Below are positions 7,537-26,868 of a stretch of 64,000 nucleotides of DNA, piece after piece. A program made the translations under genes and the position numbers. Source of the DNA: Eledone cirrhosa (lineage: Eukaryota); assembly GCA_964016885.1 (NCBI GenBank), contig OZ024740.1, positions 375,162,001-375,226,000 of the forward strand. The letters run 5' to 3'. Below the pieces are notes generated by a model. That model did not search any database. It had not been told where the DNA came from and worked only from the letters and a program-made list of their open reading frames with translations. The first letter of the stretch is position 1. Every line of letters begins with the position of its first letter.

Positions 7537-7714
7537 TGGCAGTATCGGTAGAGGGTCGGACGCCATGCTTTCCAGCATAGTTACGTCCCTTTACGATCTG
7601 AGTTCAAATCCCGCCGAGGTTGACTTTGCCTTTCATCCTTACGGGGTCTATAAAAAATAAAGTACCAGTAATGCACTGGGTAATTGCTGGCCTTGTGCCT
7701 AAAGTAGAAACAAT
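7537..7714 (+). mobile_element. tRNA-headed SINE inserted in the Helitron
   Basis: A box TGGCAGTATCGGT, B box GTTCAAATCC, consensus core and tail. Confidence 0.92.
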
Positions 7715-7837
7715 TACTTATTGAATACTTCTGCTTATTTTGACAGGTTGCGGACAAATAATGTTCTTCTTTTTTTCCTAGCTGTATATTCTTAGCAGAA
7801 TTTCAAACCCCGAGTAACGCCGGGTAAATCTGCTAGT

Positions 7838-15441: not shown

Positions 15442-15601
15442 GAGATCTAGAACGGGGGGTTCTTTTTGAACCTTACTGCCATTGAGCTTATTACAGAACA
15501 ATAAAATTGAGATGTTTTTATTTCAGTAACGCACTAAATTGAGAGATGCTGTGCTGAGAAGGATCCGTCTAACTCATGCAAGTGTGGAAATACGCATACA
15601 A

Positions 15602-15791
15602 ATAATTGTTTCTACTTTAGGCACAAGGCCAGCAAATTACCCAGTACATTACTGGTACTTTATTTTATCGACCCCGTAAGGATGAAAGGCAAAGTTAACC
15701 TCGGCGGGATTTGAACTCAGACTGTAAAGGGACGTAACTATGCTAGAAAGCATGGCGTCCAACCCTCTACCGATACTGCCAATTCACCGCC
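15602..15791 (-). mobile_element. tRNA-headed SINE
   Basis: Full-length reverse-complement match. Confidence 0.92.
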
Positions 15792-15824
15792 CTACAAATA
15801 CGCATACAAATAATGATGATGGTA

Positions 15825-18830
<3,006 letters not shown>

Positions 18831-18834
<4 letters not shown>

Positions 18835-19116
18835 TAGACATAGAATATTCGAAAATATTCTGTATGTTTATAATAAACATTTTGAAGACCTAATCGCTAT
18901 AGAATAGAATACGTCACGTATTACAATTAGATTCTCGATAAAAGCAAGGGAAGTAATCTACGCGTTTCATTCTCGTTAGAAATCATCAGGACTACATATC
19001 CAGTGCTTTTATCGAGAATGACACAGCTAGAGACTTATAGAATACTTAGCTGTGTACAGGAACTGGTTTGAAAGAGCGGTTGCCGGTCCGGCAGAAATTA
19101 GAAATTGGAATAAATG
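18831..19116 (-). repeat. Inverted (head-to-head) copy of the 310-bp HHR unit
   Basis: Reverse complement of the unit from CATTTATTCCAA to TCTATATT. It abuts the array at an ATG microhomology and has (TA)n on its outer side. Confidence 0.95.
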
Positions 19117-22100
19117 TCTATATTCACATATATATCGCTATTTCAGAGCATTTATTCCAATTTCTAATTTCTGCCGGACCGGCAACCGCTCTTTCAAACC
19201 AGTTCCTGTACACAGCTAAGTATTCTATAAGTCTCTAGCTGTGTCATTCTCGATAAAAGCACTGGATATGTAGTCCTGATGATTTCTAACGAGAATGAAA
19301 CGCGTAGATTACTTCCCTTGCTTTTATCGAGAATCTAATTGTAATACGTGACGTATTCTATTCTATAGCGATTAGGTCTTCAAAATGTTTATTATAAACA
19401 TACAGAATATTTTCGAATATTCTATGTCTATATTCACATATATATCGCTATTTCAGAGCATTTATTCCAATTTCTAATTTCTGCCGGACCGGCAACCGCT
19501 CTTTCAAACCAGTTCCTGTACACAGCTAAGTATTCTATAAGTCTCTAGCTGTGTCATTCTCGATAAAAGCACTGGATATGTAGTCCTGATGATTTCTAAC
19601 GAGAATGAAACGCGTAGATTACTTCCCTTGCTTTTATCGAGAATCTAATTGTAATACGTGACGTATTCTATTCTATAGCGATTAGGTCTTCAAAATGTTT
19701 ATTATAAACATACAGAATATTTTCGAATATTCTATGTCTATATTCACATATATATCGCTATTTCAGAGCATTTATTCCAATTTCTAATTTCTGCCGGACC
19801 GGCAACCGCTCTTTCAAACCAGTTCCTGTACACAGCTAAGTATTCTATAAGTCTCTAGCTGTGTCATTCTCGATAAAAGCACTGGATATGTAGTCCTGAT
19901 GATTTCTAACGAGAATGAAACGCGTAGATTACTTCCCTTGCTTTTATCGAGAATCTAATTGTAATACGTGACGTATTCTATTCTATAGCGATTAGGTCTT
20001 CAAAATGTTTATTATAAACATACAGAATATTTTCGAATATTCTATGTCTATATTCACATATATATCGCTATTTCAGAGCATTTATTCCAATTTCTAATTT
20101 CTGCCGGACCGGCAACCGCTCTTCCAAACCAGTTCCTGTACACAGCTAAGTATTCTATAAGTCTCTAGCTGTGTCATTCTCGATAAAAGCACTGGATATG
20201 TAGTCCTGATGATTTCTAACGAGAATGAAACGCGTAGATTACTTCCCTTGCTTTTATCGAGAATCTAATTGTAATACGTGACGTATTCTATTCTATAGCG
20301 ATTAGGTCTTCAAAATGTTTATTATAAACATACAGAATATTTTCGAATATTCTATGTCTATATTCACATATATATCGCTATTTCAGAGCATTTATTCCAA
20401 TTTCTAATTTCTGCCGGACCGGCAACCGCTCTTTCAAACCAGTTCCTGTACACAGCTAAGTATTCTATAAGTCTCTAGCTGTGTCATTCTCGATAAAAGC
20501 ACTGGATATGTAGTCCTGATGATTTCTAACGAGAATGAAACGCGTAGATTACTTCCCTTGCTTTTATCGAGAATCTAATTGTAATACGTGACGTATTCTA
20601 TTCTATAGCGATTAGGTCTTCAAAATGTTTATTATAAACATACAGAATATTTTCGAATATTCTATGTCTATATTCACATATATATCGCTATTTCAGAGCA
20701 TTTATTCCAATTTCTAATTTCTGCCGGACCGGCAACCGCTCTTTCAAACCAGTTCCTGTACACAGCTAAGTATTCTATAAGTCTCTAGCTGTGTCATTCT
20801 CGATAAAAGCACTGGATATGTAGTCCTGATGATTTCTAACGAGAATGAAACGCGTAGATTACTTCCCTTGCTTTTATCGAGAATCTAATTGTAATACGTG
20901 ACGTATTCTATTCTATAGCGATTAGGTCTTCAAAATGTTTATTATAAACATACAGAATATTTTCGAATATTCTATGTCTATATTCACATATATATCGCTA
21001 TTTCAGAGCATTTATTCCAATTTCTAATTTCTGCCGGACCGGCAACCGCTCTTTCAAACCAGTTCCTGTACACAGCTAAGTATTCTATAAGTCTCTAGCT
21101 GTGTCATTCTCGATAAAAGCACTGGATATGTACTCCTGATGATTTCTAACGAGAATGAAACGCGTAGATTACTTCCCTTGCTTTTATCGAGAATCTAATT
21201 GTAATACGTGACGTATTCTATTCTATAGCGATTAGGTCTTCAAAATGTTTATTATAAACATACAGAATATTTTCGAATATTCTATGTCTATATTCACATA
21301 TATATCGCTATTTCAGAGCATTTATTCCAATTTCTAATTTCTGCCGGACCGGCAACCGCTCTTTCAAACCAGTTCCTGTACACAGCTAAGTATTCTATAA
21401 GTCTCTAGCTGTGTCATTCTCGATAAAAGCACTGGATATGTAGTCCTGATGATTTCTAACGAGAATGAAACGCGTAGATTACTTCCCTTGCTTTTATCGA
21501 GAATTTAATTGTAATACGTGACGTATTCTATTCTATAGCGATTAGGTCTTCAAAATGTTTATTATAAACATACAGAATATTTTCGAATATTCTATGTCTA
21601 TATTCACATATATATCGCTATTTCAGAGCATTTATTCCAATTTCTAATTTCTGCCGGACCGGCAACCGCTCTTTCAAACCAGTTCCTGTACACAGCTAAG
21701 TATTCTATAAGTCTCTAGCTGTGTCATTCTCGATAAAAGCACTGGATATGTAGTCCTGATGATTTCTAACGAGAATGAAACGCGTAGATTACTTCCCTTG
21801 CTTTTATCGAGAATCTAATTGTAATACGTGACGTATTCTATTCTATAGCGATTAGGTCTTCAAAATGTTTATTATAAACATACAGAATATTTTCGAATAT
21901 TCTATGTCTATATTCACATATATATCGCTATTTCAGAGCATTTATTCCAATTTCTAATTTCTGCCGGACCGGCAACCGCTCTTTCAAACCAGTTCCTGTA
22001 CACAGCTAAGTATTCTATAAGTCTCTAGCTGTGTCATTCTCGATAAAAGCACTGGATATGTAGTCCTGATGATTTCTAACGAGAATGAAACGCGTAGATT

Positions 22101-22570
22101 ACTTCCCTTGCTTTTATCGAGAATCTAATTGTAATACGTGACGTATTCTATTCTATAGCGATTAGGTCTTCAAAATGTTTATTATAAACATACAGAATAT
22201 TTTCGAATATTCTATGTCTATATTCACATATATATCGCTATTTCAGAGCATTTATTCCAATTTCTAATTTCTGCCGGACCGGCAACCGCTCTTTCAAACC
22301 AGTTCCTGTACACAGCTAAGTATTCTATAAGTCTCTAGCTGTGTCATTCTCGATAAAAGCACTGGATATGTAGTCCTGATGATTTCTAACGAGAATGAAA
22401 CGCGTAGATTACTTCCCTTGCTTTTATCGAGAATCTAATTGTAATACGTGACGTATTCTATTCTATAGCGATTAGGTCTTCAAAATGTTTATTATAAACA
22501 TACAGAATATTTTCGAATATTCTATGTCTATATTCACATATATATCGCTATTTCAGAGCATTTATTCCAA
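19114..22570 (+). repeat. Tandem array of a 310-bp hammerhead-ribozyme unit (11 full copies plus 40 bp), retrozyme-like
   Basis: TATTCACATA recurs at 19121, 19431, ... 22531 (period 310). Only 3 substitutions were noticed (20124, 21133, 21505). No ORF. Ends in (TA)n. Confidence 0.95.
19246..19334 (+). ncRNA. Type I hammerhead ribozyme (repeated every 310 bp)
   Basis: Helix I GTAGTC/GATTAC, extended by a perfect 16-bp stem ATTCTCGATAAAAGCA/TGCTTTTATCGAGAAT. Core CTGATGA at 19276-19282, helix II TTCT-AACG-AGAA, GAAA at 19297-19300, palindromic helix III ACGCGT. Predicted GUA cleavage at 19306/19307. Confidence 0.9.
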
Positions 22571-22588
22571 TATATATATATATATATA

Positions 22589-25500
22589 GCGGCGATGAAT
22601 TAGTTTAGCGAGGTTTTTTATATGAAATCGTGTGTCGAAACAAGTATTGTTATACTTGGGGAGGGTCATATTTGTGTAGTATTGCCAGAATTAATAACAG
22701 AACACACTCACTGTTTGGTTGGTTTTCGCTTCTCGCTGTCTTTTATATCTGTAATCTAGCTTACTCGGTCCTCAATGTTGCCATTGACTGACCGACGGTC
22801 AAAAATAACACAGATACAATATAGACACAAACACATATATATAGTTTACATAAATACATAAATCTTTCGTTGCACATCTGCAACATCGTCAGTGGTGTTA
22901 TATTTTCCTCCTGTTGTGCTGTATGTCTACGCCATTTTTTATTCAGTCTGTCTATATATTTATTTATTTATTTGCTTGTTTGTTTATTTTATTTTGTCTT
23001 CTTTGCGCATGCGTTTGCGTGTGTGTATAGTGTTATGTTTGCTGTGTGACTAGTGTGTATACTGTTATGTTTGCTGGGTGACTAGTGTGTGTTTATGTGC
23101 TTGTGTATGTATTTATTTATCTTATTTTATTTACTTATTTATACTTCTCTTAGGTCAGTGTTGTTTGTTTGGATGTTGTTATTCCACTCATTCTTTCTGT
23201 TTAGCTTTGATCTTCTAATTTCTATTTCACTTGCCTCTCTGATTTGCCTATCTGCTGGGTCATTTCTATGTTTAGATATTATTCTAATTTCTATGTTGTC
23301 TATGTTACCGTCATGTTGGTGTCTAGCATGTTCGTATAGTACTTACCCGTTTTTTCGTCCTTTTAGTTCCCCCCAGTGTTGGTCTATCCTTTCACCTATG
23401 CTACGAGCTGTCTCGCCTATGTATGTTGTTGTCATTTTTCTGCAAATACCCTATGTACATCTTATGCTATAGACTACGTTTCTAGTTTTACAGTTTATCC
23501 GGGGGTTCACCTTACATATGATACATTTCCTATTGGTACAGTGGCTTTTCTTAAAAGGGTAGGTTTTGCTGATCAGGGATTTTATGGTGGTTCCTAGCTT
23601 TTCTACCACCATTATTTTTAAGTGGGTCCTTCTCAGGGCCTTTCTACACTGGTTAGCTAATTTCCCTCCAGGGGTGGCGTCCACAAACATGACACTCTGG
23701 TATCTCTGGTTGTCGTACCATGATGTGGCTTTCCCTATCTTATGTCTAGCCCTATCTAAGCTATTCCATGATTTGCTCCTGTATAATGGGCAAATTCCTT
23801 TCATGTCCAGTTCTATGAGGGTCTTATACTTTTCCATGGCTCCTTTGTATACTCTGACTCTGTCTCTTTGGTTGTAGCCAGAGAACTGCATGCGGTTGAT
23901 GAAGTGTTGGATGTGTCTTTCCATTTCTGTTGGGTCGCACATGCTGGACACATCCTTCATTACTCGTACCAAATCTGCGATCAGAATATTAAACTTAGCA
24001 CTACTGGACGTTGCTGAGTTTTTGAGTATCAGGTATTTGGAGGCCATGGGTTTAGCATAGTGTGAGTGGAGAATTTTGGCTCTCTCGTCTATAGTGTTAA
24101 TCCAGAGTTCTGTGTCTAATACAGGTTGTCTATTGTTAGGGTGTTTGGAAGGGAAGTCGATAGTTACAGTTATACTCTGGTGTATGGAATTAGCTATCTG
24201 CTGGATTCTTTCCATCGTGCTACGTTCTAAATCAAACTTGTTAGTGCTCTCTAGTGGGGGTGTTCTTATAACTATATTGATATCGTCTACATAACGAGAG
24301 TACATGATGAGGTCTATGGAACTTTCATTAAGGAGATCTTTAAGTCTCCTTTCCCACCATACCATGAAAAGGTTGGCAACATGACCAGCTATGCTGACGC
24401 CGATGGCTGCTCCCTCATTTTGGGTGTAGATTTTCTCATTGAACTTAAATATGTGGCCCTTTAGGGTAGTTTTGATACTAGCCCCTATTGCATGTGCGAC
24501 CATTTTTCTTACCTGATCATTGTTTTGGGGGGTCCGTATAGCTTTGGTCCACCCAATCCACCTTCCCATGGGAGTCTGTTTTGCCCTTGAGGTTATGGTG
24601 GGGGGACTACCTCTTATAGGTCTACTAGGGCAGAAACATCTAAGGTCATGGCTGTCTAGGTAGTCAGTGTCGTAGGTAAGTCTAAGTAGGAGGCCCAGTT
24701 CGTCTGTGTTGACGTCGCATAACTCCACCTCACTCTCAATGATCATCTCCACACATCTTTTCACAGCAAAATCAATGTTAATGGATGGGTACAGTAACAC
24801 CACAACCATGCTGCCTATTATGCAGTTGGATAGGCTCCTGTTTTTGTTGCACTCACTGATTCTGCTGAGGAGGTCTTCTGTACTGTCACATACATCTGGG
24901 GACATCTTGATTATGGGGCGTATAACCATTGAGAGAAAGTAGGAGATGCTGTAGTTGCTAGCTATATTAGCTCCGCATACGGGTCTTGTTGGTGGTCCTG
25001 TTGTCGGGTCGTCGACTGTCTTGTGGTCTTTGCGGAGCCCATACAAGTGTGGTATGACATTGTTAGACGCTTCGAAGTTGTTGGCAGTGCGTCTGCTTGG
25101 CTTTAGGATGTCAGTCCACATCATCATGTGAGCGTTGAGGATTTTTTCTCTCCCATCGTGTGTTTGTTGTGCAACTTCGCTCGTGTTGGTGATGTGGGGT
25201 TGCATAGCCTCGATGTAGTTCGGCATGCTATCTATTGACATCCTACCAGATTTATCTGTGGGTAGACACACTACCTCACCATCCCTTGTGCGCTGCTTGA
25301 GGCTAACCAAGCCTTCTACAGGTTTCCTCCCAAGTTGTTGGGCCTCTTGTCTGCTCTGTCTCTTAGTATACCTGTCTACTATTTGTCTAATCTTATTTCT
25401 AGCTATGGTGAACTGTGCCTCTGTCTCGTCATCTATTTGTTGGGGTATGCAAACTCTTTTATTAAAGGGTAACCTCGTAGGATAGATATTACCCATCTTA

Positions 25501-25721
25501 TATGTTTTGTCAGCTGGGTGGAAAAATAGTTTCTCTAAGGGGTTGTCCTTATATCTATCGTCATAGTTGTGTGTGTTGCTATTGTTGTTATCAGGGTGGT
25601 TGTTGTTGTTTCTATCATTACCATTATTATTATTGTTATGATTGCTACATGTATTGTTGTTTACTTCACCGTTATTGTTGTTGTTGTTACTGTTATTTCT
25701 ACCATTGTGGTTGTTACTTTT
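22589..25721 (-). mobile_element. Penelope-like element, Naiad-like (RT plus GIY-YIG), 5'-truncated
   Basis: ORF motifs PTDKSG, PTRPVCGA, LYPSI, YTQNEGAAIG, RYVDDI, PVLDTELW, YAKPMAS, a Cys-rich linker, and VVY...YIGETAR. The 3' end abuts (TA)n. Confidence 0.9.
23141..25721 (-). pseudogene. PLE RT-GIY-YIG ORF, inactivated
   Basis: Motif A Asp is replaced (GSMVVV rather than GSMDV). There is a TAG at 23451-23453 where the inverted copy has GAG. The first ~74 aa of the tracked ORF are read-through from the inverted arm. Confidence 0.85.
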
Positions 25722-26868
25722 ATTATACAGGAGCAAATCATGGAATAGCTTAGATAGGGCTAGACATAAGATAGGGAAAGCCACATCATGGTACGACAAC
25801 CAGAGATACCAGAGTGTCATGTTTGTGGACGCCACCCCTGGAGGGAAACTAGCTAACCAGTGTAGAAAGGCCCTGAGAAGGACCCACTTAAAAATAAAGG
25901 TGGTAGAAAAGCCAGGAACCACCATAAAATCCCTGATCAGCAAAACCTACCCTTTTAAGAGAACCCACTGTACCAATAGGAAATGTATCATATGTAAGGT
26001 GAACCCCCGGATAAACTGTAAAACTAGAAACGTAGTCTATAGCATAAGATGTACAGAGGGTATTTGCAGAAACATGACAACAACATACATAGGTGAGACA
26101 GCTCGTAGCATAGGTGAAAGGATAGACCAACACTGTGGGGAACTAAAAGGACGAAAAAACGGGTCAGTACTATACGAACATGCTAGACAACAACATGACG
26201 GTAACATAGACAACATAGAAATTAGAATAATATCTAAACATAGAAATGACCCAGCAGATAGGCAAATCAGAGAGGCCAGTGAAATAGAAATTAGAAGACC
26301 AAAGCTAAACAGAAAGAATGGGTGGAATAACAACAACACCCAAACAAACAACACTGACCTAAGAGAAGTATAAATAAGTAAATAAAATAAGATAAATAAA
26401 TACATACACAAGCACATAAACACACACTAGTCACCCATCAAACATAACACTATACACACTAGACACACAGCAAACATAACACTATACACACACGCAAACG
26501 CATGCGCAAAGAAGACAAAATAAAATAAACAAACAAGCAAATAAATAAATAAATATATAGACAGACTGAATAAAAAATGGCGTAGACATACAACACAACA
26601 GGAGGAAAATATAACACCACTGACGATGTTGCAGATGTGCAACGAAAGATTTATGTAAATTATGTAAACTATATATATGTGTTTGTGTCTATATTGTATC
26701 TGTGTTATTTTTGACCGTCGGTCAGTCAATGGCAACATTGAGGACCGAGTAAGCTAGATTACAGATATAAAAGACAGCGAGAAGCGAAAACCAACCAAAC
26801 AGTGAGTGTGTTCTGTTATTAATTCTGGCAATATTACACAAATATGACCCTCCCCAAGTATAACAATA
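25722..26868 (+). mobile_element. Inverted arm of the Naiad-like PLE (GIY-YIG plus pLTR)
   Basis: Reverse complement of 22645-23787. The GIY-YIG frame is open to 26373 and the arm ends in (TA)n. Confidence 0.92.
26613..26655 (+). ncRNA. Hammerhead-like motif in the Naiad-like pLTR (degenerate; also on the minus strand near 22860-22897 and 52008-52050)
   Basis: CTGACGA-tgttgca gatg tgcaac-GAAAG. Helices I and III are poorly formed. Confidence 0.5.

Follow-up and report, generated by a model that had tools for sequence, protein, structure and literature searches.

A putative young retrozyme array in Eledone cirrhosa bears the insertion signature of Penelope-like elements, and the hammerhead core it has in common with one of them says little about the helper

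Metazoan non-LTR retrozymes, as described in the available text of PMC7229834, are tandem non-coding units of 170-400 nt, of low GC, with one type I hammerhead in each and thousands of copies per genome, and Penelope-like elements (PLEs) are proposed there as their mobilisers. In Xenopus, retrozymes and PLEs co-occur, and a pairing of non-autonomous with autonomous elements has been proposed (bioRxiv 10.64898/2026.07.22.740005, main text). The view of retrozymes as non-autonomous PLE partners is already in print in the available portions of these two sources; the dependence of animal retrozymes on PLEs has so far been argued from co-occurrence and from pLTR similarity. PAc, the only PLE to have been reconstituted in vitro, cuts and extends both strands of its target, and its synthesis starts at two adjacent internal sites, which define a 30-40-nt tail. 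The hammerhead is dispensable for this reaction: mutants insert normally, and the protein reads the downstream start region (PMC11167929). PLEs of the Hydra clade are marked by an RWK-type motif, DKT, a CxCx5C linker, a C-terminal endonuclease (EN) and a canonical hammerhead (PMC8557442, section 11). PLE hammerheads are described as highly variable in the accessible part of PMC4209133.

The window examined here is a stretch of 64,000 nucleotides from Eledone cirrhosa (contig OZ024740.1, positions 375,162,001 to 375,226,000), and the coordinates given below are positions within it. The window contains a tandem array of 310-bp units, with the following features.

18820..19116, minus strand: inverted arm of the putative retrozyme insertion, about one unit; the TA tract of 18743-18836 contains its outer end, at about position 129-139 of the unit (first start site).
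19114..22571, plus strand: forward arm of this insertion, with 11.2 units of 310 bp arranged head to tail; its outer end, at about position 164 of the unit (second start site), lies in a TA tract.
19270..19312, plus strand: predicted type I hammerhead of the 310-bp unit, with helix I GTAGTC/GATTAC, helix II U·U plus TTCT/AGAA and an AACG loop, and helix III formed by the palindrome ACGCGT.

From the hammerhead consensus, the cut in this unit is predicted to fall after 19306. The 15-mer CCTGATGATTTCTAA occurs 16 times within the 64-kb window, against a chance mean of 0.32. Its sites are the 11 forward array units, the inverted unit at 18976, and positions 44809, 47407, 53415 (minus strand) and 53434, and in a structure-aware scan all of them read as hammerheads of type I whose cleavage triplet is GUA. 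Ten of the 11 forward units pass a strict hammerhead scan, the remaining unit having a change in helix I; a search of the window against Rfam at gathering scores returned no hits.

The array consists of short non-coding tandem units with a type I hammerhead in each, and the 310-bp element is dispersed, present in high copy number and free of any LTR or ORF, which fits a non-LTR retrozyme. Copies in the genome were counted by sequence patterns, and the exact U·U core of the young unit was found 4,226 times. In unit length, hammerhead type, low GC and copy number, the array resembles the metazoan retrozymes presented in the available text of PMC7229834. It is likely a young non-LTR retrozyme, a further member of the known PLE-dependent group. 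A search of the literature on retrozymes, Penelope and hammerheads, in which the sources were partly available and the supplements of the 2026 preprint were not covered, yielded no description of this family or of two-armed retrozyme insertions. Sequencing runs under four organism labels contain 0.90-1.00 of the unit's words, from which the young family appears to be common to those labels; no RNA run is among those listed as containing the unit.

The insertions themselves provide the most direct evidence on how the element is copied. A total of 21 young insertions were examined, 11 with U·U closure of helix II (that of the window included) and 10 with A-U; these are the first ones on contig C1 and not a random sample. 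A tail-to-tail, two-armed form was found in 18 of the 21, and frequently each of the two arms contains several units (up to 14). In all 18, the end of one arm falls at position 135-139 of the alignment and that of the other at 154-170. The true first end lies at about 129, the remainder up to 135-139 being TA-like, and the two start sites are about 35 nt apart. The flanks are TA tracts in every case except L217, where the site is not TA and a target duplication of 11-12 bp is present (a single case). Compared with the window unit, the U·U arms show 99.2-100% identity. In four arrays (L144, L213, L217 and L219) certain sequence variants recur in all units of the two arms, as would be expected if one monomer had been copied repeatedly.

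It is apparent that these insertions carry the marks of PLE-type mobilisation, namely an inverted 5′ arm, two starts 30-40 nt apart, an AT-rich target and a target duplication. As two-armed, two-site insertions match the behaviour of a PLE in vitro (PMC11167929), PLE-type copying of the retrozyme is well supported at the level of sequence. We consider it rather probable that a Penelope-like RT/endonuclease copied the 310-bp array from a monomer RNA in circular form, and that the 28-nt match between its hammerhead and that of the PLE family at 38-47 kb of the window (family A, below) is mostly common hammerhead design. In the proposed sequence of events, transcripts of an array would self-cleave as dimeric hammerheads, given the palindromic helix III, and the monomers would be circularised by a host ligase, both steps following the retrozyme model in the available text of PMC7229834. 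A PLE protein would then nick both strands of an AT-rich target, one cDNA would be started at each of the two sites, and each cDNA would run round the circle several times to give multimeric arms. The choice of helper would be set by the start-site region, at unit positions of about 120-170; no significant match to family A was found there.

Poseidon PAc is alike in cutting and extending both strands, in having two adjacent internal starts that give a tail, and in its AT-rich target, but its template is its own RNA, whereas the retrozyme would be copied in trans (PMC11167929). In the available portion of PMC7229834, no account was found of metazoan retrozymes inserted as two inverted arms with two fixed start sites. 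The arrays reported here look as if they were inserted as multimers, whereas those of Xenopus are seen as grown locally, and many Xenopus families align to pLTRs, whereas here the hammerhead core alone does so (bioRxiv 10.64898/2026.07.22.740005, main text). The case for PLE dependence in animals has so far been made from co-occurrence and pLTR similarity; in the present arrays the PLE two-site signature is borne by the insertions themselves.

The first-pass annotation had reported that the array and the hammerheads at 44809, 47407 and 53434 have a common core, closed at helix II by an unusual U-U pair. The common core was confirmed, the strings quoted there being correct, and it corresponds to the following stretch.

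19274..19301, plus strand: stretch common to the unit and family A, 26 of 28 nt matching.

The best local alignment of the unit with the 44809 region covers these 26/28 nt with a 2-nt gap, and the universal hammerhead core (CUGAUGA, GAAAC) makes up about half of it. Beyond the core, helix I differs (GTAGTC/GATTAC in the unit versus AGATTC/GAATCT in family A), and so does helix III (the palindrome ACGCGT versus ACAG-8nt-CTGT).

The description of the closure as unusual did not hold. With C at the fourth helix position, cores having U at both ends of helix II gave 53,194 matches in the genome, against 12 for a reversed-pattern control; without that C the figures were 3,076 and 78. About 56,000 U·U-closed cores are thus present genome-wide in total, among them an unrelated retrozyme, and the array's own sibling has A-U. 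A hand tally of the first 100 matches listed for the U·U pattern comprised 30 exact family A cores, 21 A-clade variants, 28 of an unrelated retrozyme of about 470-500 bp, 18 of young 310/312-bp units and three of old relatives; the A-clade variants that were fetched have family A's helix III. A U·U pair at the base of helix II is also known from the axolotl retrozyme HHR_Amex2 (PMC7229834, available text). The closure is not a trait restricted to the unit and family A, and occurrence of the core across unrelated families is what the annotation itself had named as grounds for giving up its proposal. A second, unrelated retrozyme of about 466-500 bp was encountered at L165, L166, L101 and L102 (G000:C1:5540000-5545000 and others); it has a palindromic helix III (ACTAGT), U·U closure and an inverted tandem form like that of the 310-bp element.

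Relatives of the unit place the closure within its own lineage. Non-U cores with the ACGCGT helix III gave 4,099 genome matches, and 98 of the first 100 listed are the same retrozyme with A-U. Two such sibling units match the window unit at 306/310 positions (98.7% identical) and at 308/310 with one gap, and the A-U sibling is about as abundant as the U·U form (approximately 4,100 versus 4,226). An older subfamily, represented by 790 exact 22-mers genome-wide, can be aligned with the unit over its full length, the blastn segments being 67-82% identical (about 70%); its helix II is of the type (U/A)CGC-CAACA-GCGU and its helix III is ACAG-A-CUGU. Of 54 old-subfamily cores parsed in 90 loci, 22 have U..U and 20 have A..U. 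To judge from these cores, U·U is a one-base polymorphism within the retrozyme lineage. Still more degenerate relatives, with a helix II beginning TGGAT and a z of 9.3 to the old subfamily, were seen at L065 and L221-L224. A 312-bp variant of the young retrozyme, with an AATA loop, is found at L150 and L151, and at L150 it adjoins an inverted leader of family B (below) with a short unexplained spacer between.

Helix II of the old subfamily is 13-14 nt long and has the frame C..AAC.AG, as in the young unit, while that of family A is 12 nt. Since its 14-nt variants match the young unit in both length and frame, most of the letters 'shared' with family A can be explained within the retrozyme lineage. 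After this explanation two AU pairs still match family A, and the helix III of the old subfamily (ACAG..CTGT) resembles that of the A clade, which counts against a view confined to the lineage. Of the hammerheads compared, that of family A matches the young core best (Smith-Waterman z 7.0; 0 of 150 shuffles as good, shuffles being a weak null for a constrained motif). On the sequences compared, the 28-nt match is likely due for the most part to a hammerhead design that is common locally, together with a small number of bases that have drifted, rather than to descent or helper use. As the one PLE tested inserts without its hammerhead and its protein reads the downstream start region (PMC11167929), the shared core says little about helper specificity. 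The identity of the helper, as this case shows, is poorly predicted by a common hammerhead core.

Three PLE families, designated A, B and C, are represented in the window.

18135..18742, minus strand: family B endonuclease fragment and inverted leader, adjoining the array; Hydra-clade, with a different hammerhead; a rival candidate helper.
22588..26868, minus strand: family C PLE, with ORF 23451-25946, a Neptune/Nematis-type linker and a hammerhead-like core at 22865-22892.
38036..38107, plus strand: leader of the family A copy, 5′-truncated, its own upstream hammerhead lost.
38108..40250, plus strand: family A RT and GIY-YIG coding region, disrupted after codon 481, compared with 711-714 codons in intact relatives.
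44350..44868, plus strand: family A pLTR, with a hammerhead at 44804-44854; it ends about 20 nt past the predicted cut, in TA.
46948..47467, plus strand: second copy of the family A pLTR, 99.2% identical to the first, with a hammerhead at 47402-47452.
53300..53433, minus strand: inverted arm of a short family A insertion, with hammerhead and leader up to the distal start site and a 26-nt link to the ORF leader.
53434..53496, plus strand: forward arm of that insertion, ending at the proximal start site.

That the segment 53301-53433 links the hammerhead at 53434 to the leader of the ORF at 38108 had been proposed earlier, and the link is borne out: 53300-53325 (minus strand) is identical to 38036-38061 over 26 nt, and a hammerhead of the 44809 type lies 174-175 nt before the ATG in 18 of the best 25 RT copies in the genome. 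The plus-strand hammerhead at 53434 lacks the 5′ strand of helix I, the complete one being the minus-strand copy at 53428. Intact members of family A, for which the annotation had suggested a search, were found, 17 of the best 25 RT copies having 711-714 open codons. Pairwise identity of the RT copies has a median of 98.6%, the best pairs reaching 99.5-100%. The family inserts at TA targets in a two-armed form, with its two ends about 65-70 nt apart (of 19, 12 lie at +20-24 and six at +85-94). In two of four sequencing runs that contain the unit, no contig of the family A ORF was found, which does not prove its absence.

Families A and B have RWR, DKT, the CxCx5C linker, a C-terminal GIY-YIG and a canonical hammerhead, and by these motifs both are Hydra-clade PLEs. 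Like the Hydra-clade PLEs in the available part of PMC8557442, they show (TA)n insertion and an inverted 5′ copy; in comparison with these, family A has a unit of about 4.8 kb whose 3′ region is a long stretch of microsatellite. Within that 3′ region a repeat of about 600 bp is present three times (40589-41194, 42189-42797 and 46179-46782), at 92-98% identity. Family B shares approximately 40% protein identity with A and differs from it in a long helix II; its median identity is 97.7% and its two ends are about 90 nt apart. Classification of family B, the element adjoining the array, as Naiad was rejected, given that its EN is C-terminal (N-terminal in Naiad) and a hammerhead is present (Naiad lacks a canonical one).

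Family C has a full ORF of 1,217 aa with DKSG and a CxxxxCxxC linker, and is of Neptune/Nematis type by motif. Its young subfamily (52 of 79 hits at one score; median identity 99.76% over 14 loci) forms tandems and inverted arms ending in TA. With ages estimated on copies that were ranked by how closely they resemble the one in the window, family C is the youngest of the PLE families on the (TA)n target and the closest in age to the arrays. At L182-L183 (G000:C1:307341240-307350003), very young family C copies have a long Asn-rich insert in the 1,217-aa ORF, 4.1-kb tandems, inverted arms and dozens of equal-scoring copies. A further family, F, was met outside the window (L212:4960-6300; L297) as a Neptune-type PLE fragment with the hammerhead GAAACGTTA, a CxxxxCxxC linker and GIY-YIG. 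The F copies examined are 75-90% alike, and among them none is intact and none ends at the leader motif.

The annotation had paired the array with family A as a two-component system. This was right in kind, in that the insertions carry a PLE signature, but the named pairing is unproven and can be held only tentatively. A comparison of insertion ages and targets, which it had also called for, shows family A to be intact, recent and TA-targeting, but B and C share its target and age (medians of 98.6, 97.7 and 99.76% for A, B and C, respectively). Judged from sequence, A is a possible helper, and B and C are possible likewise. As the current helper, the A clade leads the candidates with less than an even chance; family C comes a close second and is doubtful, an F-like family is unlikely, and family B and some other helper are, equally, more unlikely still. 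Use of more than one helper is likely.

Physical associations point in several directions. The neighbours of young arrays are families A, B and C and the second retrozyme, with TA tracts between them where they lie within 200 nt, bar one gap at L150. Joins between the old retrozyme and PLEs were read one by one and kept only if they lacked a TA tract; four remained in 90 loci. At L139 the old retrozyme is joined head-to-tail to an A-clade leader, a junction found once genome-wide, which on its sequence shows A-clade and retrozyme RNA in one apparent insertion. At L277 the partner is the tail of family C, and at L245 and L284 it is family F (counted as one or two joins), the L245 join lying at the F leader motif.

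That a Neptune-type family is the dedicated helper, either C for the current burst or F, is somewhat unlikely. The youth of family C matches that of the arrays, and its tandems and inverted arms lie in TA, but Smith-Waterman and profile tests revealed no link in sequence of C with the young unit. The F leader resembles a conserved motif just before the second start site of the retrozyme (GCTATTTCAGAGC..CCTAAT versus GCTATWTCAAGCGTTAACCTAAT). This motif gives the best alignment in three of four old retrozyme copies (z 4.1, 2.7 and 0.4) and in the 312-bp variant, and F has the linker and GIY-YIG domain noted above together with the L245 join. Against the 310-bp unit, however, the F leader is not significant (z -0.9), and the degraded state of the F copies examined also weighs against it.

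Less likely again is a reading in which the A clade is the true helper and also the hammerhead donor: an ancestral retrozyme would have taken an A-type hammerhead, of which the young subfamily kept helix II (TTC/GAA) and the old one helix III (ACAG/CTGT). The 26/28 core match, the A-clade-like helix III of the old subfamily, the L139 join, the intact and nearly identical family A copies, and the TA target and two-armed form of that family are in its favour. It requires, however, parts from two subfamilies with only 2-3 non-universal base pairs in each; no young hybrid hammerheads were found genome-wide; the joins to C and F are of equal standing; and the two ends of A are about 65-70 nt apart, against about 35 nt in the retrozyme.

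A broader proposal, which we regard as improbable though not negligible, is that a dimeric PLE protein twin-primes the circular RNA of the retrozyme at two fixed sites, giving two inverted multimeric arms in one event. In this view the lineage would be a promiscuous parasite: it would switch from one helper to another and exchange its hammerhead module when the template is changed between RNAs of the A clade, C and F, and the young helix II would have been acquired from family A recently. As the retrozyme is intact and very young, and so are several candidate PLEs, a direct test of trans-mobilisation with a small panel (A, B and C) is feasible.

Returning to the preferred reading, copying from circular RNA by a PLE protein, two further alternatives bear on it. 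It is very improbable that unequal crossing-over enlarged the arrays in situ as ordinary satellites, independently of any PLE protein, a route that is proposed in the main text of the 2026 preprint (bioRxiv 10.64898/2026.07.22.740005) and that suits the tandem form: the insertions are dispersed, both arms are multimeric and inverted, two fixed outer ends recur in 18/18, and L217 has a target duplication.

The annotation had also held that the 310-bp element derives from, or mimics, the family A pLTR, and this was not supported, given the lack of likeness outside the core, the wide occurrence of U·U and the absence of hybrids among the matches. With the core removed, comparison of the unit with the two family A pLTRs gave Smith-Waterman z values of -0.2 and -1.1, and profile HMMs of the A upstream region, the A-clade leader, B and C found nothing significant in the masked unit. 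Post-cleavage leaders of A, B, C, E and F gave z values of -0.9 to 0.6 against the unit (0.6 for the A leader); some high Smith-Waterman z values were TA-microsatellite artefacts and were disregarded. Genome-wide patterns for hybrid hammerheads had 0 and 1 match, the single match being a retrozyme inversion junction. Homology to the family A pLTR beyond the hammerhead core was not found. That the unit is a deletion derivative of that pLTR therefore has the slightest of chances, despite the shared core and the finding that in Xenopus 24 of 57 retrozyme families have matches to the ends of PLEs or to one other repeat (bioRxiv 10.64898/2026.07.22.740005, main text), as about 280 of its 310 nt are without similarity to family A and the retrozyme lineage has an independent history, with at least approximately 30% divergence. 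A resemblance of the unit body to the family B pLTR, noted by eye (z 8.2 only with both hammerheads cut out), was rejected; 51 of 150 shuffles were as good and no B hit was obtained at E<10.

Other repeats were met alongside these elements. A fold-back repeat at 47789-48216 has a hammerhead-like core near 48125-48170 (CTGAAGA, a long helix II and GAAATATATA) and is probably a further PLE leader. On the minus strand, 33942-35493 contains RT remnants that seem closer to a LINE than to a PLE, with a weak match to Pfam RVT_1. A dispersed SINE-like repeat of about 180 bp is present in 13 copies of 79-94% identity, for example at 2042-2215, 7537-7720 and 15601-15793.
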